From NCBI RefSeq assembly GCF_004765795.1, contig NZ_SBIV01000013.1, positions 1-42,709 on the forward strand: a stretch of 42,709 bases of DNA, given 5' to 3'. Below, one piece after another: positions 3,140-29,457 of the stretch (within the stretch, counting starts at the first letter, position 1; each line of letters starts with the position of its first letter). The translations under genes and the position numbers were made by a program. The notes under the pieces were generated by a model, which saw only the letters and a program-made list of their open reading frames with translations, did no database searches and had not been told where the DNA came from. Source of the stretch: Halorussus marinus (GTDB lineage Archaea; Halobacteriota; Halobacteria; Halobacteriales; Haladaptataceae).

Positions 3140-3183
3140 CTTAACCAACACTGGGGCCGGTCGGCGTCCGAGTGTTGGTTAAG
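3140..3183. repeat. 13-bp perfect inverted repeat (core TTAACCAACA-N22-TGTTGGTTAA), copy 1
   Basis: CTTAACCAACACT 3140-3152 and AGTGTTGGTTAAG 3171-3183. Confidence 0.9.
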
Positions 3184-3303: not shown

Positions 3304-3777
3304 CTATTCGTCGGTCTCGAATTCTTCGACGAGGTCCTGGATCTCCTCGCGGTCCATCTCCTCGACCGCTTCGAGCCCGCTCTGAACGACCAGCGGATAC
3401 CAGTGCATCAGCTTCTCCAGCGGATCCGCGCCGTCGCGGCGCAGCTGGACGTTCGTCTCATCGAGCACAATCTCCAGTTCATCCTCGAGCCGCTCGGGCA
3501 GATGGATCTGTTTCGGACTCCAGTTCTCCCGCTGCTTGACGTTGTTCGCAGAGTGAATTTGTGCGGACTTGGGGAGCTTCTGGTGCCACTCTTCAAACCC
3601 AGGCGCGCCGGCGTGAATCTTCCCATGGCAAGACGGACAGACCGGCACCAAGTTCTCAAGCATGTTATTCGTCCGGTCGCCATCAATGTGGTGGGCGAGG
3701 ACATCCTCGCCACCGCCACAGATGATACATTTCTCTCCCTTTGCATCGAGGCATGCCTGACGATAGTTTTCAACCAT
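3304..3777 (-). CDS. HNH endonuclease domain fused to a ParA-partner-like C-terminal domain
   Basis: CIICG..HHIDGDRTNN..NLVPVCPSCHGKIH; C-terminal half aligns with the 3770-4225 product. Confidence 0.85.
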   Translation of the reverse strand: MVENYRQACLDAKGEKCIICGGGEDVLAHHIDGDRTNNMLENLVPVCPSCHGKIHAGAPGFEEWHQKLPKSAQIHSANNVKQRENWSPKQIHLPERLEDELEIVLDETNVQLRRDGADPLEKLMHWYPLVVQSGLEAVEEMDREEIQDLVEEFETDE

Positions 3778-4225
3778 CGTCCAGTAACTCCATGCGCGTC
3801 ATGCGCTCAATGCGTTCATCGAGTTCCTCGCCCTCCATGTCCACCATGCGCTCCATGCCCAACAAGACAACGAGAGTCTTGAAGTGTCGGTCTTTCTTGT
3901 AATCGCCATCCGCGACGTAGTTGAGCCGCGACCACTCATCGTTCATGGGGTCTACGAGCTCGTCGGGGAGATAGAACGAGACGCCATTCCATTCCTGCTT
4001 GACGTTCTCAACGTTCCATGCGCTCCCCGCGGGCAAGCCGTTCTCCTCGTTCTCCTCGCTCCCGTCGCGGTTTTCGTTCTGGTCGTTCATGTCGCGCATG
4101 TCGCGGTCTGAACGCATGTCGGTCTCTTCCCGCTGGTCGTTCCTCTCGGACTGTTCGTCGACGCCGTCGTCCTCGTCCTCGAAGCGCTTCGCTAGCCGAT
4201 CCTGGACGTCGTCTCCATTAGGCAT
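3770..4225 (-). CDS. Putative ParA partner (centromere-binding adaptor)
   Basis: Directly downstream of and overlapping parA; acidic disordered N-terminus and folded C-terminal domain; start moved to ATG 4225. Confidence 0.6.
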   Translation of the reverse strand: MPNGDDVQDRLAKRFEDEDDGVDEQSERNDQREETDMRSDRDMRDMNDQNENRDGSEENEENGLPAGSAWNVENVKQEWNGVSFYLPDELVDPMNDEWSRLNYVADGDYKKDRHFKTLVVLLGMERMVDMEGEELDERIERMTRMELLDDG

Positions 4226-5003
4226 GGCTGGCCACCTCCTCGGCAACCGCGAGGTAGACGTCCGTCATGTCGGTGTCCTCGGCGTCCTCTCCGAAGATAG
4301 ACCCGCCCTGTTTGATCGAGCGCGCGATCGCGACGCGGTGAGCGATCTCGAATACGGGGCATCGGCCGCCGAACGTGTCTTCGAACCAGTCGAGCATCCG
4401 CTGTTGCTCGTTGTCAAGCGGGTAGTTGACGTCGGAGACGAGGATGCCGCGCTCCTTGATCTGGGTGTCGTAGCGTTGTTCGAGGGTTTCGATCTGGTTG
4501 AGGAGATGCTCGAGTGCGAGCTGCATCATCTCGTCTGTCTCGACTGGGACGAGAATGCCCTCGCAGGCCAGGAGGACGTTGTCGTTGATCGGGCCGAGCG
4601 ATGGGGGCGCGTCGACGACTGCGATGTCCCAGTCGTCGATACCGCCGTGGTCGAAGAGGAGGCTGAGGCGTTCGCGGGGCTTCCAGCCGGCAGCGATGAG
4701 CTCCTGCTCGGCGCGAAACATGTCGACGTGTGCTGGGAGGATGTCGAATTCGGGGTGGCTGACGGCGAGGTCGCGGCCGATGTCGTAGTCGCGGGGTTCT
4801 TTGAGTGCTTCGAAGAGGCTGTCGGCGTTGGTGGTGTAGGCGTTGTTGTGTCCGAGGCGGTTCGTGAGGTAGCCTTGGGGGTCGGCGTCGACGGCGATCA
4901 CGTCGTGGCCGAGTTCGGCGAGTGCGCCGGCGACGTTGATGGTGTTTGTGGTCTTTGCGACTCCGCCTTTCTGGTTGGTGATTCCGATACGCATGTCGTT
5001 CAT
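4218..5003 (-). CDS. parA: ParA/Soj family partition ATPase
   Basis: NQKGGVAKTT deviant Walker A, VDADPQG, VVDAPPSLG. Confidence 0.95.
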   Translation of the reverse strand: MNDMRIGITNQKGGVAKTTNTINVAGALAELGHDVIAVDADPQGYLTNRLGHNNAYTTNADSLFEALKEPRDYDIGRDLAVSHPEFDILPAHVDMFRAEQELIAAGWKPRERLSLLFDHGGIDDWDIAVVDAPPSLGPINDNVLLACEGILVPVETDEMMQLALEHLLNQIETLEQRYDTQIKERGILVSDVNYPLDNEQQRMLDWFEDTFGGRCPVFEIAHRVAIARSIKQGGSIFGEDAEDTDMTDVYLAVAEEVASHA

Positions 5004-8391: not shown

Positions 8392-8929
8392 CGCTTCCTC
8401 CGTACTTCTGATAGAGGTGGTCGCCATGCTGCTTCCCGACATGACGACGTGCTTTCTCCAGCCGGCTGAACGGCGACGTGCTACAATACTGGCAGTACCA
8501 CTCAGTACGCTGGCCGATCAGGCGATCGTGCAGCTCCGTGTACTCCTCGCTCGACCACGTATCTGGCGGGCCGTCGGGAGCGTCGTAGTTGAACGACTCG
8601 TTGTGTTCCTCCCATTCTTCTTGAGGTGCCTGCTCTCCCGAGCCGTCGTCGTCGTTCAGTCCCTCCTGGAGAGCGGTGATCGCGTCGTCGAGCTCCGCGG
8701 CGTTCTCCCGAGAGGCGTCTTTGTCGAAGCCGTACTGGCGGCCGTTCATGATGTCTTCAGCGAGCGAGACGGCGGCGTCTTCGAGGGCTTCGGCGTGACT
8801 GCGGTCGAGCTCGTCGACGAGGTCGTCGATGGACTGGCGGAGGCCGGTGTCGAACCGGTTGTTCCGCTCGCGCTCGCCCGGCGGTGTGCGGTCCCAGCCC
8901 GACGGCCAATCGATATCGGTCTCAGGCAT
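8384..8929 (-). CDS. Chimeric protein: WPxGWxRT-type N-terminal fragment fused to an acidic region and a C2H2 Zn finger
   Basis: IDWPSGWDRTPPGER; C-terminal CQYC...H...H. Confidence 0.6.
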   Translation of the reverse strand: MPETDIDWPSGWDRTPPGERERNNRFDTGLRQSIDDLVDELDRSHAEALEDAAVSLAEDIMNGRQYGFDKDASRENAAELDDAITALQEGLNDDDGSGEQAPQEEWEEHNESFNYDAPDGPPDTWSSEEYTELHDRLIGQRTEWYCQYCSTSPFSRLEKARRHVGKQHGDHLYQKYGGSDE

Positions 8930-9572
8930 CAGTATCCGCTCCTTTGTGTGCGTCCCGTGGCGAACGATGCCCCCACCGAACCTCAACTGGCCGATGAACC
9001 TTGGCGTGTTCCTCGTTGGACATTATCTCTAAGTTCTCGGGGCGGTTGTCCCAGGGGATTCCGTTCCTGTGATGCACGATCTTCCCGTTGAGGGCTTCGA
9101 ATCCTTGTTCAGCGACAACAACGAGCCGGTGGATTCGCACCTCCCGGGTTGATCCAGAAATAGTTGTCTCAACTACTTCGTACCCGCTTTTTGTAATTCG
9201 GTGACCGGGTGGATTCCTCCTGCGGACCCGCCGAGACTCTTCGTACTTGCCCCGCGTCTCAATCTCATGCTTATGAATCCACTCGTGGGCAGTCGCATAC
9301 CCACATTCTAACTCGTCTGCGAGTTCGGGGATTGTGAGCTGCTGGTTGTGATACAGCTCTCGGACCAGTTCCTCGTCACGCCACGGCCGATCTTTGTTGA
9401 TTGTTTCTTTCTTTTTAATACCGTGTTCGTCTAGCCATTTCTGAACAGTTGTATCCGATGCTCCAAGCTCCTCCGCGATCTCCGCTGTGTTTAGCCCTTG
9501 CTCTACGAACAGGTTGCGTAGAATCTGTGGGTTGCGCCACGGAGTGTCGGCGTCTGCGTAGGGGTCAGCCAT
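8922..9572 (-). CDS. HNH (homing-type) endonuclease with two N-terminal HTH repeats
   Basis: PWRNPQILRNLF / PWRDEELVRELY repeats; IHRLV..VHHRNGIPWDNRPENLEIM..EHAKVH; visibly lower GC. Confidence 0.88.
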   Translation of the reverse strand: MADPYADADTPWRNPQILRNLFVEQGLNTAEIAEELGASDTTVQKWLDEHGIKKKETINKDRPWRDEELVRELYHNQQLTIPELADELECGYATAHEWIHKHEIETRGKYEESRRVRRRNPPGHRITKSGYEVVETTISGSTREVRIHRLVVVAEQGFEALNGKIVHHRNGIPWDNRPENLEIMSNEEHAKVHRPVEVRWGHRSPRDAHKGADTDA

Positions 9573-9807
9573 CGTTGTTGGGCACTTCCTCCTCGTTGAG
9601 GGCGTACATGCCATGGCCAAGCGGTTCGACGATGTTGTCCTGTTTGAGCCGTCCGAGTCGTTCGCGAATGTACTGCGCGGAGTAGCCTGCCTGTTCTGCG
9701 ATGAGCGGGGCGTTTGCGCGCCCGTCGCGTAGTACTTCGACGATTGCCCAGTCGGCGTCGCGGAAATCATCAACGTCCATCTGTGGTAGTACTGTACTCA
9801 TCTCCAC
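9565..9807 (-). CDS. Winged-HTH transcription regulator (repressor-like)
   Basis: DWAIVEVLRDGRANAPLIAEQAGYSAQYIRERLGRL...GMYAL; first gene of a divergent operon. Confidence 0.8.
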   Translation of the reverse strand: MEMSTVLPQMDVDDFRDADWAIVEVLRDGRANAPLIAEQAGYSAQYIRERLGRLKQDNIVEPLGHGMYALNEEEVPNNDG

Positions 9808-20000: not shown

Positions 20001-20170
20001 TTCGAGACGAGTGGGCGGTGCTCGAGGGCTGGCTGGCTGTCCTCCAGGGCGTGACGGCCGACCACCGTCACACCGAGACAGGGGAAACAGAGGAACTGGT
20101 GGTGTTCGGTCGGCGGCCCGAGCAGGCGAGTCTCCAGGAGGCCTCGGCCCAGAGGGGTGTTGGTGCGTGA
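17018..20170 (+). CDS. Large plasmid-type replication initiator (RepH-like) with N-terminal Zn-ribbon
   Basis: ~1050 aa; YQIVGCSNC...CPLC; internal and C-terminal wHTH-like segments; size and context recall haloarchaeal RepH; GTG 17018 after GGGGTGG. Confidence 0.7.
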   Translation: MTYQIVGCSNCTGYWITENLREQATTECPLCFQQHDTAKLNVRFQHDNFETAAEIRSKIVAQHAGELDAHENCDDYGIQADRVDELHRDRERRFADEAEQAFSEYDELLADEVETSFERWRAQHDYLEAEAWDALSDQHTRFADEAKEAFRDQDTRLGDRVDLDRDYSTVDHDDPETLGTTGGLSFTEQGRFADATTTLEVPVSELAATIVDQLRDTLVDAIRELADGRSALELQALLDDAGVTASQHDADLLGLADRIARGSKQAALDFYGQLAQTAGRATTEDTTLAPQLLALVDTTPTIKVDLTSAFWDRRRSQREDICEYLAALARGCDVRIIGSPLDQHDLYDDHRSDLPVSRDDITPSRESRDDRVEAAKASLDRDGREIAILRALAGEDSQTLPYGTLYAQYAVQNSRVRQCISTLADLGVVDTFGPNTDRHVELLPAGEDYLNWLDTETARQRTLQESVSDQLQSSDDSRVTTRTHEAPSPESQRRRLPHLHTLQPLARWDATATAASTPENGLAVVDYPLQAQADRGSPRWHYDYRDDRLVVGAEFDGPMQYWVCVARALASSKTFTNILKDGDRLDDTDEFAHFLTENKYVLRDSRCLGHLPDKVEDGGDYVDELESAEEHLCELTKRLHEGDFDGSEAEYRGVITREALGLAGTMVHLLDLVDVEVVRQVRLPSSNGGRNDILTDDRRETLVKSLATGVAIQSTYNNSSVYRQLFETREEKRDAAIVPTVDYDDPFGELIGSVCVVGDLGSMEDALVEDLRQRLGSPGEIHEDAPDIRVRVPVQSTEQLGRMAFATAVERLCTAKNLKPTREAVSVLRLFSATPFDAAAAVCGLSTEDRRRDIRLDEVRTGLARVSEARVMPWLSSGVRDLVAVLLEAREPVSVAELCERADIATSTWHRNKDVLEVLDIIRDTTGGVRLALPFKNADEYDIRPWYTRRDEDRDDYREASLSGVILDLLDELAPPREVIERVSEAVRDDSVERLRDEWAVLEGWLAVLQGVTADHRHTETGETEELVVFGRRPEQASLQEASAQRGVGA

Positions 20171-20472
20171 CCGACTCCGACGAGGAGACGGTGTACGTGG
20201 TGTCTCGGAGTGGAAACGGCGGCCGGAACCACGTCCATACGGATCCGGACTGCCAGTACCTCGAGCGCGCGAAGAACGTGTTCGAGAAACCCCGGAGCGT
20301 GGTCGACATCGACCGGCTCTGTCAAGTCTGCTCGGGCGAGCACTCACCGGAGAACGAGGGCCCGAGCGGAGACCCGAACGAGACGCGGAAGCTGTTGTCG
20401 TCGACGGCGCCGGAGGAGATCGGGCTGTCGGCGATCGGCGAGCGAGACGGCCTGGGCGGTGATCAGGTGTGA
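20167..20472 (+). CDS. Zn-binding protein (HxxxxC...CxxC)
   Basis: TVYVVS...HVHTDPDCQYL...CQVC; GTG start overlapping the rep stop. Confidence 0.7.
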   Translation: MTDSDEETVYVVSRSGNGGRNHVHTDPDCQYLERAKNVFEKPRSVVDIDRLCQVCSGEHSPENEGPSGDPNETRKLLSSTAPEEIGLSAIGERDGLGGDQV

Positions 20473-20705
20473 CGTCGTGCGACGAGTGTGGCGTTGGTTC
20501 GATGGGCGCGTATATCCGCGAGTACGAGGACGGCCGCGATCTCTGTGCGGGCTGCTGGCCGGCTGGCGAGTGCGAGCGCTGCGGGACCGAAACAACCGAG
20601 ACCACGCTTTCAGGCGAGTACCGCTGTCGGCGGTGTCAGGAAACGATCCGTGGTCGGGATTCGACACGCCCTGCTGACCAGGCGGGCCTCGGGGAGTGGT
20701 CGTGA
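20469..20705 (+). CDS. Double Zn-ribbon micro-protein with C-terminal QxxLxxW
   Basis: CDEC, CAGC, CERC, CRRC; QAGLGEW. Confidence 0.75.
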   Translation: MTSCDECGVGSMGAYIREYEDGRDLCAGCWPAGECERCGTETTETTLSGEYRCRRCQETIRGRDSTRPADQAGLGEWS

Positions 20706-20950
20706 TGACTGACGAGACTGTGTACGTGTCGCGGCGACGCTACACGAACCGAAGCGTCTACCACACCGACAAAGACTGTCCGCAGCTCCAGTGTTCGGAG
20801 AGCGTTCGCGCGGTCTCCCGGCGCGTCCTCCATATGGATATGCGCGAATGCCAGTACTGCGCGGACGTTCAACCGACACCTGGCGGGAGTGGGAGCGGGC
20901 ACTACCAGAGTCTCATTCAGGCGGCCGACGAGGACGGTGGTCAGGCGTGA
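20705..20950 (+). CDS. Zn-binding protein, paralog of 20167-20472
   Basis: ETVYVS...YHTDKDCPQL...CQYC. Confidence 0.7.
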   Translation: MTDETVYVSRRRYTNRSVYHTDKDCPQLQCSESVRAVSRRVLHMDMRECQYCADVQPTPGGSGSGHYQSLIQAADEDGGQA

Positions 20951-21102: not shown

Positions 21103-21596
21103 ACTATCGATCCCCGGAGGAAGACGAGGAGATTCCGCACATCGACCGAGCAGTTGACCAGCTCGGGTTCGACCCGCGGCGGTTCTTCGACGAGCCGCTG
21201 CTCGCCGGCGACGACACGGCGATGGATCCGGTTGAGCGGATGCGTGGCATCATCCGCGGCCTCGACGACAAGCAGTCCGTCGCCAGCCTGCTGTCGGTCG
21301 AGAAGACCCTCGAGCGTGGGCCCCGTGACGAGGTCATCGAGATGCTGCAGGACCGGATGGCGTTCCTCCGCGAGCACGGAGAGCGCCCCGACAACCTGCG
21401 GACCGAGTGGCCCCACGAACTCCCCGAGCGCTACCAGCCCCACGATCGCGACCGCCGGCAGGCCGACGTCTACTGGGTTGACGAAGACGAGGGCGAGCGG
21501 CGGCCGTGGTCACAGCGCCCGACGAGTCCGACGGTCGGCCGGTCGTTCGACGATGTCCAAACCGAGGTTGCGACCGACGGAGGTGACTCGCGGTGA
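21099..21596 (+). CDS. Hypothetical protein
   Basis: MNYRSPEED...ATDGG; coupled. Confidence 0.7.
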   Translation: MNYRSPEEDEEIPHIDRAVDQLGFDPRRFFDEPLLAGDDTAMDPVERMRGIIRGLDDKQSVASLLSVEKTLERGPRDEVIEMLQDRMAFLREHGERPDNLRTEWPHELPERYQPHDRDRRQADVYWVDEDEGERRPWSQRPTSPTVGRSFDDVQTEVATDGGDSR

Positions 21597-21880
21597 ACAT
21601 CCTGGCTCAGGATCACGAGCTCCTCGAGGCGGTCCGCATGCTCTACGCGGCGGGCGAGACCGATCTCGCAGCTGGCGGCGTACACCCTGAGTCGATCGGC
21701 GAAGAGCTCGGCATTGACATGAAGACGGCGACCCATCGTTGCCGGGAGCTAGCCGACGAAGGCCGACTCGTTCGCCAGGATGGGTTGAATCCGGAGACGC
21801 TGCAGTCTCGGATCAGCTACGCGCCCGTCGACAAAGACGAGTCGAACACTGAACGGCCCCAGCGGAGTGGAGCTACATGA
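21593..21880 (+). CDS. wHTH protein (tandem paralog 1)
   Basis: GGVHPESIGEELGID...RCRELADEGRLVR. Confidence 0.75.
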   Translation: MNILAQDHELLEAVRMLYAAGETDLAAGGVHPESIGEELGIDMKTATHRCRELADEGRLVRQDGLNPETLQSRISYAPVDKDESNTERPQRSGAT

Positions 21881-22170
21881 CCGAGCAGAACGCGTGGGGT
21901 GGGCCGACCGACGAGGCGATCGTCGACGCAGTCCGTGACCGCTGCCGGGAGGGTCGGACAGACTTGCTCGAGGGCGGCGTGCCAAGCGAGGTGCTCGCGG
22001 ACGAGTTCGGGATGGACCAGCACGCGATGCAGGATCGTCTCCAGACGCTGGTCCAGACTGGCCGTCTGGTCCGCGTTCGTGGAGCGGCCCCCGATACGTA
22101 TCGTCCCCGGCCGAGCTATCGACCACCAGATGAGCCGGTTGATTCCGATGGGGGTTCCGAACGATTATGA
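21877..22170 (+). CDS. wHTH protein (tandem paralog 2)
   Basis: GGVPSEVLADEFGMD...RLQTLVQTGRLVR. Confidence 0.75.
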   Translation: MTEQNAWGGPTDEAIVDAVRDRCREGRTDLLEGGVPSEVLADEFGMDQHAMQDRLQTLVQTGRLVRVRGAAPDTYRPRPSYRPPDEPVDSDGGSERL

Positions 22171-22295
22171 CGGTAGAACTACGAGAACAAACCGAGAACA
22201 CGCCCCGGTCCAATCTGCACACTATCCACGTCACTGCGGAGGGGTACAGCAGATTTGAATTTCCCGATAGAATCGGGAATCGCATGATTCTCACT

Positions 22296-22859
22296 ATGAG
22301 ACACTCAAATTACCCATCCGATTGGCAGAAGCGACGAGCAAGGGTATTCAAACGAGACGGCTACGAGTGCCAGAACTGCGAGTATCAAGCACCCACAGAC
22401 TCTAATTCTCCATCGGGACTTCACGCCCACCACCAAACGAAGATCAGCGAGGGTGGAGGTCACGGGGTCGACAATCTAATCACGCTCTGTCAGGAGTGTC
22501 ATATCGAGGTTCATTCGAACAGAGGCGTCGATGAGGTCCCACCGCCTGAACTCCATGAGTGTACGTACGACGGCTGCGATGAAGTCCGCGGCAAATGGGC
22601 GCTTCAGAATGGAGGCTACTGCACTGCACAGTGTGAGTACCGAGATAAAGCAGAAGCTGTCCTTGACGCTCTCCAAACTGAGGAGACCTTCTGTTCAAGT
22701 TGTTTCGCAAACTGGCCACCTGACCACGAGGTCTGCCCCCAGTGCGGGAACTGGGCTCCAGACGAGGATGCAGCGTTCCAGGATGGTGATTTTGACATCC
22801 ACAATCTTGTTGCACACGTCATCTGGCAAGTCGACTTCCTCGACTTAGAGCGAGACTGA
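22296..22859 (+). CDS. HNH endonuclease fused to a Cys-rich domain paralogous to the downstream gene
   Basis: WQKRRARVFKRDGYECQNC..LHAHH....GG.H..DNLITLCQECHIEVH; upstream in-frame ATG at 22167 also possible. Confidence 0.85.
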   Translation: MRHSNYPSDWQKRRARVFKRDGYECQNCEYQAPTDSNSPSGLHAHHQTKISEGGGHGVDNLITLCQECHIEVHSNRGVDEVPPPELHECTYDGCDEVRGKWALQNGGYCTAQCEYRDKAEAVLDALQTEETFCSSCFANWPPDHEVCPQCGNWAPDEDAAFQDGDFDIHNLVAHVIWQVDFLDLERD

Positions 22860-22931
22860 CGAATACCCGAGTCCGCTCTCCGACAACTCTCCGCCAGTAC
22901 GAAAGACGCCCTACGGTCCAATACAGTGACA

Positions 22932-23513
22932 ATGTCAACCGAAACACAGAGCCCCACGACTGTCGAGTGTAAGCATCCAGAGTGCTCCGAGATTGGGAAC
23001 CATTGGGAGTTCCGACACGGTAGCTACTGTAGTACGGACTGCGAGCTCCGACACGAGGGCCGCCAAGTACTCCGGAAGCTCATGTACGACCACTGCCGGT
23101 GCTTCACCTGCTTCCGCGAGCTGAAGACCGTCAACCCGCCGAAGCCCGACTTCGAGTTCACCGAGGACGGTCACGGCTGGACGCTCGACGAGAACGGCGA
23201 CCCGACGCTCCAGTACTACAGTCAGGAGGTAACGCGGAGCGCAGCCACCGGCTTCCAGTTCCTCACCGAGAACGCCGGCAAAGGCGAGAAGCAACGTGGC
23301 GACACGGTGATCACGGGCACGATCTGCTCGAAGTGCGGGAACACCGACCACGCTCATCACGATCCCGTGCTCGCCGGCCGCCAAGCGATCGGCCGGCTCG
23401 CCGCCCTGCTCGACGGTGACGACGACGTCGTGTTCGACGCCGAAGTCCTGCACCGAGTCTACCAGCGTCGCGACGATCTCCTCCTCGCGGTCGGCCTCGC
23501 GCTCCACGACTAA
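22932..23513 (+). CDS. Cys-rich multi-Zn-finger protein
   Basis: ECKHPEC..W..GSYCSTDCE..CFTCF..CSKCGN. Confidence 0.75.
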   Translation: MSTETQSPTTVECKHPECSEIGNHWEFRHGSYCSTDCELRHEGRQVLRKLMYDHCRCFTCFRELKTVNPPKPDFEFTEDGHGWTLDENGDPTLQYYSQEVTRSAATGFQFLTENAGKGEKQRGDTVITGTICSKCGNTDHAHHDPVLAGRQAIGRLAALLDGDDDVVFDAEVLHRVYQRRDDLLLAVGLALHD

Positions 23514-23523
23514 CCCCACAGCC

Positions 23524-23919
23524 ATGTCCACCGACACGTCTGCTCCCAGCCAGATAGCGGAGACCGTGCCCCGAGACCCGAGCGCGTTCCGGCCGAGCAA
23601 ACACTTCGCATCAAAGGTCAAAGACCTCGGCACCGACCGGAACCGCCACCTCGACGGCGAGATCATCAACGGCTGCATCGAGCACGGCAGCCGCCGGAAA
23701 GTCGACTCGGGAGTCTACCACTTGCGGGAGACGTTCGGCGGGGCGACCTACCGGCTCGTCGTCGACGTCGACGACCGCGAGGTCGTCACGGGCTACCCGA
23801 TCTCGATCAACACTGACGCCGCAAAGCGGTCCGGCCGCTGGTCGACCGACCAGATCGAAGATATCCGGCACTTCATCAAGACGGATCCGCGACCCGACCG
23901 CGACTACTCGGACTCCTGA
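23524..23919 (+). CDS. Putative RelE/BrnT-fold (DUF4258-like) protein
   Basis: PSKHF....IINGCIEHG....YRLVVD...VVTGYP pattern. Confidence 0.5.
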   Translation: MSTDTSAPSQIAETVPRDPSAFRPSKHFASKVKDLGTDRNRHLDGEIINGCIEHGSRRKVDSGVYHLRETFGGATYRLVVDVDDREVVTGYPISINTDAAKRSGRWSTDQIEDIRHFIKTDPRPDRDYSDS

Positions 23920-25914: not shown

Positions 25915-27487
25915 TACACAGACCCCGTCGACCGGCGAGACCGAGGAGGTCGAGCTATCCCGTACCCAGATCCGGGCAGCGTACAACCCATTCGAACACG
26001 GGTGCTGGCTCGACTTCGCGAATAAGCTCACCCAGGGCTACATGGCCGCCGAACACGACGACTGGAGCCCGCTCGGCGACCACCACGACCAGTGGCTCCG
26101 ACACCTCGCCGGCGAGGCGGACGTCGACAGCGACCTCGCACTGCTCTGCCACCGAGATGGCCTTAAGACGACCATCATCACGGCATTCGCGGTTGCCTGT
26201 CTCGAGTACCTAGACGGCTACCGCGTGATCTGGGCGATGAACACCCAGGACCAGGCCTACGAGAAGGCCGACCGCGAACTCAACAAGTTCATCGAGCGCA
26301 ACCCGTGGCTACTCAACCTCAACAAACCCCGGAAGACCGACTCGAAGAAGACCAAGGAGTTCGCGAACGGCTCCAGCCTGACGACCGGCTGGCTGAAGGG
26401 CGCGATCGAGGGCGCGCGTGCGCACCTGCTCATCCTCGACGACATTATCAAGGAACTCGGCGACGGCTCGACCGAGAGCGTCCTCAACTGGGTCGACGGC
26501 GTCGCCCAGCCGATGGTCAAAGACGACGGCCGGACGGTGCTCGTGGGGACGCGGAAGCGCCCCGACGATATCTACAACCACTACCGCGACTACGGGGGGT
26601 ACGCGCTCCGGGAGTTCCCCGCAATCCTCGACACCTGGGACCAAGAGTTCGGCGAGGATGACGACTGGCAGACCCGGCGCCCCGACCCCGAGTTCTACAC
26701 CGAGGTCGAGAACCCGTGGGGCGGGGGAACGCTCCAGTTGCTCTGGCCGGAGGCCCGCGGACCGGACTGGCTCGCAGACAAGCGCTCGAAGATGGCCGAC
26801 CATCTGTTCTGGCGCGAGTACACCCTGACTATCCGCGGCGCTTCGGGGAACCTCATCAGCGCCGACGACGTCAACCGGCGCGTCGAGGATGGCGGCTGCA
26901 GCATCCGTGGGGCCTCCCCACCCTCGAAGTATCGTGCTGGCGCGAACGAAGCGATCGTTGTCGCCCACGACCCCGCCCAGTCGCCTACCGGCGACGACGC
27001 GGCGTTCGTCGTGTTCCGCGCCAGAGCCGATGGGGCGCGCACCCTCCTTGACGCCCGCGCGGATCAGGGCCTGCAGCCCAGCCAGATCAAGGCTCAACTC
27101 GCGGAGTACGACCGGCGGTACGACCCGGCGCTGATCGTGATCGAGGACAACGGCATGCAGCAGTACGTGGTCAACGACGCGATCGAGTTCAGTCCCCAGC
27201 TGGCAGGGAAGGTCACGGGAATTTCGACGTCCGGCCAAAAGCACTCCTGGGAGAACGGCATCCCTCGGCTTCGGACGCTCGTTGAGAACGGCGCCATCCA
27301 GTTCTACCGCGGGCACCAGGCCAGCGAGGAGTTCGTTCAGGCTGCGATGAGCCTCGAACTGCAGGACGGCAAGCTGCAGGGGCACACACCAGACCTGATC
27401 GCAGCGTGGTACATGGCTGAGCAAGGGATGCGCCGGCTGGCCTTCGACGCCGGCGATGAAGAGGACTCTGGGGTGAACTACTTATGA
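25907..27487 (+). CDS. terL: Terminase large subunit
   Basis: HRDGLKTT Walker A variant, LLILDD Walker B, VGTR coupling motif, AHDPA and IEDNG and HTPD nuclease motifs; start moved to ATG 25907. Confidence 0.92.
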   Translation: MSSTQTPSTGETEEVELSRTQIRAAYNPFEHGCWLDFANKLTQGYMAAEHDDWSPLGDHHDQWLRHLAGEADVDSDLALLCHRDGLKTTIITAFAVACLEYLDGYRVIWAMNTQDQAYEKADRELNKFIERNPWLLNLNKPRKTDSKKTKEFANGSSLTTGWLKGAIEGARAHLLILDDIIKELGDGSTESVLNWVDGVAQPMVKDDGRTVLVGTRKRPDDIYNHYRDYGGYALREFPAILDTWDQEFGEDDDWQTRRPDPEFYTEVENPWGGGTLQLLWPEARGPDWLADKRSKMADHLFWREYTLTIRGASGNLISADDVNRRVEDGGCSIRGASPPSKYRAGANEAIVVAHDPAQSPTGDDAAFVVFRARADGARTLLDARADQGLQPSQIKAQLAEYDRRYDPALIVIEDNGMQQYVVNDAIEFSPQLAGKVTGISTSGQKHSWENGIPRLRTLVENGAIQFYRGHQASEEFVQAAMSLELQDGKLQGHTPDLIAAWYMAEQGMRRLAFDAGDEEDSGVNYL

Positions 27488-29457
27488 GTGAGACAGACGC
27501 AGACGACGAGTCAGACGTAAAGATCCATGTCGACGGGATGGGCGGCGGCGCCGATCTCTCGAAGGCCGAGACGACTACGCAGCTGGCCGAGCGCCGCATT
27601 CGCTCGCTCGGCGTCGGCGTCAAGCCACCTTACAACCCCGACCGGCTCGCGAGCTTCCTCGAGCTCAACGAGACGCTGGCCACAGGCATCCGAAAGAAAG
27701 CCCGCTACGAAGTCGGGCTCGGATTCGACATTGTCCCCCATCCCTACATCGATGCCGAGGACGCCGACGAGGACGAACGCGAGGTCGTCCAGTGGTTCTG
27801 GCGGGGCCCCGACTCGCGATGGCAGACGTCCGCCGACCGGCCGGCCGAACCCGCAACGCCCGAGGAAGTGAAAGAGCTCGTCCGCCAGGACTACCACCTC
27901 GTCGGCTGGTGCTGCTTCGAAGTCCTCGTCAACGCCGAGGGCAAGCCGGTCGGCCTGGCGCACGTCCCCGCGAACACAGTCCGCGTCCGCCGTCCCCAGG
28001 AGTCGATCAGCCACACCCAGCCCCAGCACCCCGAAGAGGGCCGATTCGTTGACGGCGACGTCGCCGAGTTCGCGTCCCGAGGCTACGTCCAGATCAGGAA
28101 CGGCCGGCGGCGGTACTTCGGCGAATTCGGCGACCGCTACCGGGGACTGGAGCCCCAAATCCAGACCACCGGCGACGGCCCGCCGACAGTCACGTACACG
28201 GAGGCTGACGACGATGAGGAACCCATCTTCGTCGACCGCGAGACGGGCGACGTCGCCGTCGGGAGCGCGGAAGCGCTCGATAATGCGCCGGCGAACGAGC
28301 TGATCTTCATCAAGAACCCCAACCCGCTGGAGGACGACTACGGCGTTCCGGACTGGGTGTCGGCGATGCGGACGATCAGCGCGGACGAGGCGGCGAAAGA
28401 CTACAACCGCCAGTTCTTCCAGAACGACACGATCCCGCGGCTGGTCGTCAAGGTCACCGGCGGCGAGCTGAAAGAGGAATCGAAGCGCGACCTCCGCCAG
28501 ATGCTCAACGGGCTTCGCGAAGAGTCCCATCGCGCAGTCACGCTGGAGGTTGAGAAGTTCAAGACCCAGAACGATCTCGGCGACGAGGAGCTCGAGATCG
28601 AGATCGAGCCGCTCGGCCAGGGCATCAGCGAGGAGATGGATTTCCGGCAGTTCCGCGAGAAGAACGAGCACGAGATCGCGAAAGTGCTGGAGATGCCGCC
28701 CATCAAGATCGGCGTCACCGATTCCGCGAACCGGTCGAACTCCGACCAGCAGGACCGGGACTTCGCGCTCGAGGTGATCCAGCCCGAGCAGAACAAACTG
28801 GAGGCCCGCCTCTACAAGACACTCCATCAGACGGCGTTCGGAGTCTCGGACTGGACGATCGACTACGAGCTCCGCGGCGCCGACCAGCCCAAGGAGGATG
28901 CGCAGCTGGCCGAGCAGCGCGTCCGCGCCATGCGGCTGGCCGGCGTCGGTACCGTCGACGAGGCCCGCGAGGAACTCGGCCTCGACCCGCTCGGCGACCC
29001 CTACGGGAGCATGACGCTCCAGGAGTTCGAAGAGGAGTTCGGCGGCAACCCGGCCGGCGAGGGCGAGACGGAGGCCGTTCACGAGCCGCCGGCGGAGTAC
29101 AAGATCGGCGAGCGCGAGTGGGATGCGGTCAAGAGCAACCTCGTCGCCAAGGACGCGGTCGAGCAGACGCAGTTCAGTAGTTCGAATCTCGACGAGGGGC
29201 TCTACGACTACGACGCCCAGGAGCTCTACCTGTCGTTCCTCCGGGAGGATGGGCAGTCCTCGCTGTACGCCTACGTCGACGTCCCGCCCTCGGAGTGGGC
29301 GGCGCTGACCAGCGCTGGCTCGGCAGGCGGCTACCACTATGACTCGATCCGGCTAGAGTATCCCTACTTAGAGATCACGAACTTCCACGACCGGCTTCCC
29401 GAGGGCCCGACGCCGGACCCTGGGGAAGTCCCCGACGACGTCCCGAGCGACATCTGA
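27484..29457 (+). CDS. Portal protein with C-terminal KTSC-like domain
   Basis: Follows terL; LAHVPANTVR, YGVPD, FFQNDTIP, IAKVLEMPP, TVDEAREELGLDP; tail SSSNL..GLYD...LYLSF..YAYVDVP..W..L..A.S.G.Y. Confidence 0.92.
   Translation: MSETDADDESDVKIHVDGMGGGADLSKAETTTQLAERRIRSLGVGVKPPYNPDRLASFLELNETLATGIRKKARYEVGLGFDIVPHPYIDAEDADEDEREVVQWFWRGPDSRWQTSADRPAEPATPEEVKELVRQDYHLVGWCCFEVLVNAEGKPVGLAHVPANTVRVRRPQESISHTQPQHPEEGRFVDGDVAEFASRGYVQIRNGRRRYFGEFGDRYRGLEPQIQTTGDGPPTVTYTEADDDEEPIFVDRETGDVAVGSAEALDNAPANELIFIKNPNPLEDDYGVPDWVSAMRTISADEAAKDYNRQFFQNDTIPRLVVKVTGGELKEESKRDLRQMLNGLREESHRAVTLEVEKFKTQNDLGDEELEIEIEPLGQGISEEMDFRQFREKNEHEIAKVLEMPPIKIGVTDSANRSNSDQQDRDFALEVIQPEQNKLEARLYKTLHQTAFGVSDWTIDYELRGADQPKEDAQLAEQRVRAMRLAGVGTVDEAREELGLDPLGDPYGSMTLQEFEEEFGGNPAGEGETEAVHEPPAEYKIGEREWDAVKSNLVAKDAVEQTQFSSSNLDEGLYDYDAQELYLSFLREDGQSSLYAYVDVPPSEWAALTSAGSAGGYHYDSIRLEYPYLEITNFHDRLPEGPTPDPGEVPDDVPSDI

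Follow-up and report, generated by a model that had tools for sequence, protein, structure and literature searches.

Why does a virus keep, directly beside a small zinc-finger gene, a predicted nuclease whose tail is a relative of that gene's product? The question arises at positions 22296-23513 of the window, by which we mean the whole stretch analysed, a complete contig of 42.7 kb from a haloarchaeal genome which, with its genes for an integrase, ParA, terminase, portal and protease, is a temperate tailed virus. The answer that we consider best, at a probability of roughly one in two, is that such genes are mimic nucleases at the locus they compete for, where the tail would aim the predicted HNH domain at the matching site of a rival. 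The precedent supporting this answer is Odn (Gp88) of phage ICP1, described as a homing-type nuclease with a DNA-binding domain 42% identical to the site-binding protein of a rival (PMC8263062, PMC10448857).

The first gene of the pair (22296..22859, forward strand, 187 aa) is predicted to encode an HNH nuclease joined to a trimmed zinc-finger domain of the ORF89 family. Longer in-frame starts exist at 22284 and 22167; the 16-member alignment of its family places the family start at 22296 (MRHSNYP). The N-terminal part (22296..22520, forward, with approximate limits) passes the Pfam HNH cut-off, residues H49, H50, N64, H73 and H77 are invariant in 16/16 family members, and the predicted domain displays the beta-beta-alpha-metal motif, catalytic His, Asn and metal ligand of a His-Me finger nuclease. 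Its fold matches the HNH protein of phage GVE2 (Z 7.4, rmsd 2.2, 68 residues aligned) and the type IV restriction enzyme EcoKMcrA (Z 8.7, rmsd 4.2, 84 residues aligned). Enzymes of that type (EcoKMcrA, TagI) gave the best nuclease-domain fold matches and share the modular design of nuclease plus reader, but the match is limited to residues 1-87 and the fusion has no modification-reader domain.

The remainder of the fusion, which we call X' (22530..22856, forward), comprises a treble-clef finger, a helix, a compact zinc ribbon and one further helix. The neighbour, X (22932..23513, forward, 193 aa), is a homolog of phiCh1 ORF89 and of PhiH1_445, annotated 'CxxC motif protein', to which it is 59-61% identical. 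The relationship of the HNH tail to X is well supported by pairwise comparison (BLASTP E = 3e-11, with 27/86 residues identical, about 31-32%; Smith-Waterman score 123, reached by 0/5000 shuffles) as well as by alignment of the two families (hhalign probability 98.3%, E = 2.4e-14, 56 columns). Both open reading frames and the cysteine motifs of the preliminary description were found where it had placed them, and its claim of identical spacing stands from the first Cys pair through C-x2-C-F, that is across the treble-clef finger, the helix and the first Cys pair of the zinc ribbon, which the alignment of X' with X spans. For the last pair the claim fails: after the first ribbon pair the HNH tail skips about 60 residues of X and then closes the ribbon, with 10 residues between the two ribbon pairs in the HNH protein (C140..C151) vs 71 in X (C60..C132). 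X' lacks the 60-residue insertion of X as well as its DH and K65 positions.

The tail had also been described as a diverged copy of the neighbour, and here the evidence points the other way. In both trees that we built, one for X and one for the second case discussed below, both based on short alignments with long-branch warnings, the fused domains group apart from their own neighbours; in the 56-column tree, X is sister to the homolog of a close relative (L013) within a close clade (96/90) and the fused domains lie outside it. Moreover, the tail is 66-72% identical to stand-alone proteins elsewhere, compared to the 31-32% that it shares with X. X' is therefore an old paralog of X and not its copy; a recent duplication of the neighbour as the source of the tail was rejected, the DNA alignment being at background level and both trees speaking against it. 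The fusion itself is likewise old and maintained, because its 16 members, which are 32-89% identical to that of the window, keep not only the nuclease residues but also all eight tail cysteines invariant down to 32% identity.

An old fusion may nevertheless be a newcomer at a given locus. In the window, the predicted HNH fusion is a low-GC3 insertion between a conserved leader element and X: its GC3 is 0.57 against 0.71-0.93 in flanking and core genes, and the alignment with L013, a close relative, breaks off at 22262 and picks up again at 22952, with the HNH absent at that exact site. An HNH within 400 bases of X, which is how we defined adjacency, occurs in 1/15 close X loci (14/15 being without) and in 2/41 distinct X loci, five of the loci (L005, L014, L018, L024, L038) having fewer than 400 bases on one side. 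Its GC3 and its absence from 14/15 close loci suggest that the X locus acquired the gene recently, and to be optional, intergenic and absent from the cognate loci of relatives is one mark of a free-standing homing endonuclease. Of the mobility route envisaged in the preliminary description, in which HNH genes capture part of their target locus, the insertion at one exact site thus survives; what was captured is itself an old paralog rather than a fragment of today's target. A perfect 8-bp inverted repeat (22261..22279, forward) closely precedes the HNH start and lies at the 5' border of the insertion; a role in translational or operator control is possible for it because the homing endonuclease genes of phage T4 offer an analogy (PMC2988022). 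The free-standing T4 genes (mob/seg) are reported to be intergenic and optional, with an N-terminal nuclease, a distinct C-terminal region and a hairpin before the start (PMC2988022), and the window HNH resembles them in being intergenic, optional, beside a conserved gene and preceded by a hairpin. It differs in that the T4 targets lie in neighbouring genes, and the parts of that account available to us describe no C-terminal homology to the neighbour's product (PMC2988022).

The second X locus with an adjacent HNH (L035) has it downstream of a distant X. Its HNH carries the C-terminal half of X, so that the two fusions hold different halves, and the two HNH domains are 32% identical. Pairwise, the L035 tail scored 36 against its neighbour, which is not significant, and we count it on a profile test only: among 153 HNH tails, the X profile, built without the neighbour of L035, was matched only by the window fusion (E = 1e-13) and by L035 (E = 6e-4). 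Further relatives of the window fusion were sought with little return. Viral scans gave HNH-only matches, one metagenome scan gave no confirmed relative and another a single HNH-only match, and there were no full-length relatives in 400 + 34 haloarchaeal genomes (overlapping sets). One family member, P0071 (89% identical to the fusion), and one homolog of X, P0049 (80%), both list a 2369-base contig, which hints that the two are adjacent there.

What X does bears directly on what its relative could be aiming at. X is encoded ahead of membrane-protein and terminase genes, and in phiCh1 and phiH1 the 280-bp gap upstream of it contains no HNH. Its structure model is confident (pLDDT 80), its finger weakly matches the FCS and YacG treble-clef fingers (Z 3.7 and 3.0), and comparisons of the structure model and of the family gave no clear fold or named family, which is not proof of a new fold. 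In 12 HNH-less loci printed in our alignment, a conserved leader element stands about 25-100 nt before the start of X; in the window it stands before the HNH instead (22204..22244, forward; inner stem 22214-22219/22235-22240, outer stem 22204-22206/22242-22244), in a single and perfect copy. Our collection has 41 distinct X loci, and every X subfamily among them has a structured leader. That of the close subfamily has a 6-bp stem and a conserved loop, with 96% of cells paired, five two-sided changes and 0/500 shuffles as good, a control that overstates the case since the structure was read off the same related sequences. In distant subfamilies, a 7-bp stem capped by a 5-nt loop closely precedes the start in 19/26 loci (12-29 nt before it in L016, L017, L018, L021, L022, L023, L030, L031, L032, L035 and others), featuring G-C/C-G exchanges, G-U pairs and 132/133 paired cells, the last figure being partly by construction as the search pattern required such a loop and at least 6/7 pairs. 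This distant-type hairpin, which lies at the entry to the late operon, resembles lambda boxB in its 7-bp stem, U-G closing pair and 5-nt loop. Because of the G-U pairs the leader looks like an RNA element, and we infer that X may bind these leader hairpins. An Rfam scan of the window gave no match for the leader element. A separate inverted repeat (22209-22218 with 22249-22258) might offer the leader stem a second pairing partner for its 5' arm, which would give the HNH-bearing allele a possible alternative fold. We also noticed two X-family proteins (L328 1357-1995 and L329 1399-2031) that lack the N-terminal treble clef and lie among tail-tube-like genes; both were considered as possible fusions and set aside, as neither carries an HNH.

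The fusion follows the X leader directly and stands where the late region begins, which invites the thought that it is a domesticated tool with which the virus nicks, at the site of the partner, DNA or a transcript of its own, as a late switch or for replication or packaging. Phage HNH proteins encoded near terminase genes assist packaging, and the GVE2 protein is among the fold matches. Such a tool would hardly be optional, however, as this one is: phiH1, phiCh1 and 39/41 X loci have no adjacent HNH, the virus ChaoS9 has parA and partner genes without an HNH fusion, and the codon use of the window gene is foreign. We regard this explanation as quite improbable.

The window contains a second cassette of the same design (3304-5003). 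On the reverse strand, it is headed by a ParA ATPase (4218..5003; Pfam AAA_31, E = 6e-31), followed by a stand-alone ParA partner with an acidic N-terminus and a DUF8160 domain (3770..4225) and by an HNH joined to a DUF8160 (PF26492) ParA-partner domain of the same family (3304..3777). The preliminary description had paired 3304-4225 as a second instance, a claim that is weak in pairwise comparison (E = 5e-4, 2/5000 shuffles) and holds at the level of families, both products matching phrog_29165 and entering one profile. The parA, partner and HNH-partner cassette is common to phiH1 (PhiH1_265/260/255) and two other loci (L205, L206), and the partner domain is frequent without an HNH on haloarchaeal plasmids and is also present in ChaoS9; a viral scan for the ParA partner gave nothing, and atlas leads for it remained below 0.9. 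From position and pattern, the DUF8160 partner is a candidate ribbon-helix-helix protein with a centromere-binding role. The HNH domains of the window and phiH1 cassettes are 63% identical and their tails differ; partners of different subtypes are joined to HNH domains that are almost identical. In the ParA-partner tree, in which the bootstrap has not settled and branches are long, the fused tails cluster together and with three proteins from elsewhere (P0066-P0068), apart from their own neighbours (95/99). One of these, P0066 (92 aa, on five contigs), opens on the second fusion's linker, has no HNH domain and is a disarmed or split form of that fusion. Downstream of the par cassette, a 16-bp inverted repeat (94%; 3140-3183) is a candidate operator, centromere or terminator.

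How general the design is can be judged from a survey of every HNH in the collected loci and in the window's own genome (223 distinct HNHs), including 131 haloarchaeal ones and 61 from other phages with at least 40 extra residues. The tail matched an adjacent ORF at z of at least 8 in 8/131 haloarchaeal HNHs and in 0/61 non-haloarchaeal phage HNHs, and control ORFs 1-4 kb away gave two matches, both to a second Xer gene. When neighbourhoods were permuted, 8/115 haloarchaeal tails matched their own neighbour against 0.26 expected and a maximum of 3 in 5000 permutations, so that the pattern is indeed enriched elsewhere, as a check attached to the preliminary description had asked; the sample is not random, its 80 regions having been picked from match lists with short frames favoured. 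Two of the eight cases (the window gene and phiH1) were brought in by the finding itself and L280 by a search that started from the second case, and L269 and L272 belong to a single family; this leaves five independent outside cases: L264 and L171 (both winged helix), L175 (a small helical protein), L269/L272 (Xer) and L280 (Orc1 winged helix). The second case in the window, L205, L206, L035 and ChaoS9_305 (z 7.6) fell below the pairwise bar and are uncounted. HNH domains are mostly 22-49% identical across cases, which is consistent with separate fusions, and by sequence the combination of a predicted HNH with a domain of the neighbour's family recurs with six partner families in haloarchaeal genomes and viruses. 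A third HNH gene in the window (8922-9773; helix-turn-helix domains plus HNH_3, GC3 0.63) showed no match to its neighbours (z 1.1).

The survey has another side. The 107/115 haloarchaeal tails that do not match their own neighbour are what one would expect if the pairs were a by-product of local shuffling, in which an HNH fuses with a nearby duplicated small gene, the pair is inherited together and the tail drifts to a new use unconnected with the site of the partner, be it as a general DNA-binding arm or, like that of I-TevI, as an autorepressor. Tandem paralogs without an HNH do stand right upstream of the pair (21593-21880 with 21877-22170, E = 7e-12), many haloarchaeal HNHs have helix-turn-helix or ribbon-helix-helix-like tails and no matching neighbour (L207 and L210, for instance), and the identity of only about 31% between X' and X is suited to drift. 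Drift sits poorly, however, with tail cysteines conserved over 16 sequences, and local fusion with a tail not copied from the gene now next door, in a gene that is recent at the X locus; nor does it account for two separate fusions adjoining X. Taken together, we consider local shuffling somewhat unlikely.

Two further features of the cases, the part that was captured and the source that it resembles, narrow the choice. In multi-domain partners, the captured portion is a DNA-contacting part: L280 captured only the winged helix of Orc1, L171 only an N-terminal winged helix, the ParA-partner fusions the C-terminal domain, and L269 and L272 the Xer catalytic domain with its catalytic Arg and His positions changed. 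L280 (= L209, 1468-2094), where an HNH, a ribbon-helix-helix-like segment and an Orc1-type winged helix are convergent with an orc1/cdc6 gene, comes nearest in its architecture to an origin-directed nuclease; in L272 (2952-3815) and L269 (2969-3823), the HNH-Xer fusion faces an intact Xer gene in convergent orientation, and the locus has two Xer genes. When ten tails were ranked against 34,220 ORFs, the own neighbour headed the list for two (L171, L280), took a rank between two and four for six and was missing from the listed top matches for two, so that 8/10 tails are closer to the copy of another element, by margins that in several instances amount to a few bits. The clearest foreign match is that of the phiH1 tail to the ParA partner of ChaoS9, another virus of Halobacterium salinarum (38%, E = 4e-13; 47 bits vs 35 bits to phiH1's own partner). 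Across the survey, 23 tails match some neighbourhood and 15 of these only foreign ones, which makes adjacency the minority state.

These features also bear on the suggestion that the two genes form a poison and its antidote, the armed copy being toxic as a homo-oligomer or brought in by the domain that both share, and the neighbour, which has no nuclease, binding and restraining it, with addiction or abortive defence as the outcome. The genes are adjacent and mostly co-oriented, and X' keeps the zinc scaffolds of X while losing its conserved polar residues. Ribbon-helix-helix and winged-helix domains commonly dimerise, and the phiH1 cassette follows the start of the constitutive transcript T7, so that the nuclease is probably produced in lysogens, which would have to be protected from it. 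But three cases are convergent and not co-transcribed (L280, L269, L272), Orc1 and Xer serve other essential jobs, 8/10 tails are nearer to foreign copies, and in one locus (L208) the partner next to a DUF8160-like tail shows no match to it. The nuclease/decoy heterodimer proposed earlier found no support, and the DNA-contacting nature of the captured parts (Orc1 and repressor winged helices) and the foreign-like tails count against it as a general rule, though it may yet hold for the pair of X' and X; a complex prediction for X with X' returned a score of 0.00 with controls not folded and counts neither way. Overall, the poison-antidote relationship appears unlikely. A search with PADLOC gave no full-length system match, only HNH-limited ones (19-30 bits for the second HNH of the window) and none for the neighbours.

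We therefore return to the rival-targeting reading and to how it would work. The HNH fusion would be a mobile free-standing gene whose tail is a borrowed address label for HNH-less X loci of rivals. The reading presumes that a partner attaches to nucleic acid at its own gene or close by, an activity established for Orc1, Xer and winged-helix regulators and putative for X and DUF8160, and that the captured domain keeps a related specificity. Once cut, the rival allele could receive a copy of the HNH gene (intronless homing), which would account for the position of that gene beside an unarmed family member, or else the cut could destroy the competitor, as by Odn; the carrier might be spared because the insertion parts the binding from the cutting site, or because its own allele has another specificity. 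This reading is supported by tails that match their own neighbour more often than under permutation, with none among the 61 phage proteins from outside the haloarchaea, by the restriction of X-profile matches to the two HNHs that adjoin X, by the capture of DNA-contacting parts to which foreign copies are usually closer, by near-identical HNH domains with different partner subtypes, and by the insertion signature formed by low GC3, absence in L013 and a hairpin before the start.

Several observations count against it. X' lacks DH, K65 and the whole insertion, and with them possibly the recognition surface; the leader of the window itself is intact, which leaves self-immunity without an explanation; and a comparison with HNH-less alleles gave no sign that the 5' end of X has been recoded into a resistant form. 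Low GC3 at the 5' end of X, which might have marked a co-conversion tract, was dismissed as HNH-less alleles show the same low GC3. An RNA-like leader is a poor fit for a DNA nuclease, adjacent matches are in the minority, several rank margins are a few bits and both trees rest on short alignments, and the genomic context of the fusion family covers 1/16 members.

The comparison with Odn deserves similar care. Like Odn, the fusions join a nuclease domain to a relative of an established or putative site-binding protein, in L280 even one with an origin-binding domain of the initiator type, and chimeras of T5orf172 and RepA_N related to Odn are reported to have swapped specificity domains among homologs (PMC8263062, PMC10448857). 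Unlike Odn, they are archaeal, they have an HNH and not a T5orf172/GIY-YIG nuclease, they draw on six captured families and not on RepA_N alone, and they are predicted nucleases, known from their sequence, whose genes adjoin that of an unarmed relative from the captured family. Pfam and PHROG scans return HNH, phrog_18924 or phrog_29165, not T5orf172 with RepA_N, and by domain content the fusion is thus not an Odn, even if it might act in a similar way. As to the principle behind Odn, homology to the proteins of other elements is present and foreign copies are often the best match, with site binding by X and DUF8160 being putative. Among published accounts, ChaoS9_305 is annotated HNH/MarR beside a helix-turn-helix gene (ChaoS9_310) and ChaoS9_255 as a homolog of PhiH1_255, and the L-region genes of phiH1 (PhiH1_265/260/255), which form the second-case cassette, are annotated singly, the portions consulted carrying no remark on neighbour paralogy or function (PMC6210493, PMC6471424). 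Within the literature searched, which did not extend to subscription papers and supplements, we found no account of an HNH paired with a relative of its neighbour.

On the question of how free-standing homing nucleases gain new targets, Odn is the one worked example that we found of borrowing a rival's binding domain. Here, such borrowing seems to have taken place over and over, each time with another kind of domain, and the donor family next door names the likely target. With phiH1 as a model virus that has one instance and ChaoS9 as a candidate rival on the same host species, the proposal is directly testable. The rule can also be reversed: a gene whose domain was captured by an HNH becomes a candidate site-specific nucleic-acid binder, and together with the leader hairpins this offers a first way of approaching the ORF89 family, whose genes stand at the head of late operons in haloviruses. 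A more speculative joint reading, which we consider doubtful, is that haloarchaeal mobile elements graft HNH domains onto origin-, centromere-, recombination- and operator-binding domains and park them beside the unarmed gene as weapons against rival alleles, the site of the ORF89 family being the RNA hairpin of the late-operon leader and the DNA nuclease being tethered through the nascent transcript.

Further observations concern the surroundings of the pair. The early region that holds the tandem paralogs contains another nuclease-free paralog pair (about 20157-20462 and 20696-20950, E = 7e-5). X is followed by an ORF90-family gene (23524-23919, phrog_14318), as it also is in phiCh1 and phiH1, whose pattern recalls an RNase of the RelE/barnase type, an impression with no database match. 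Further downstream, 27484-29457 encodes a portal protein with a C-terminal KTSC domain (Pfam).
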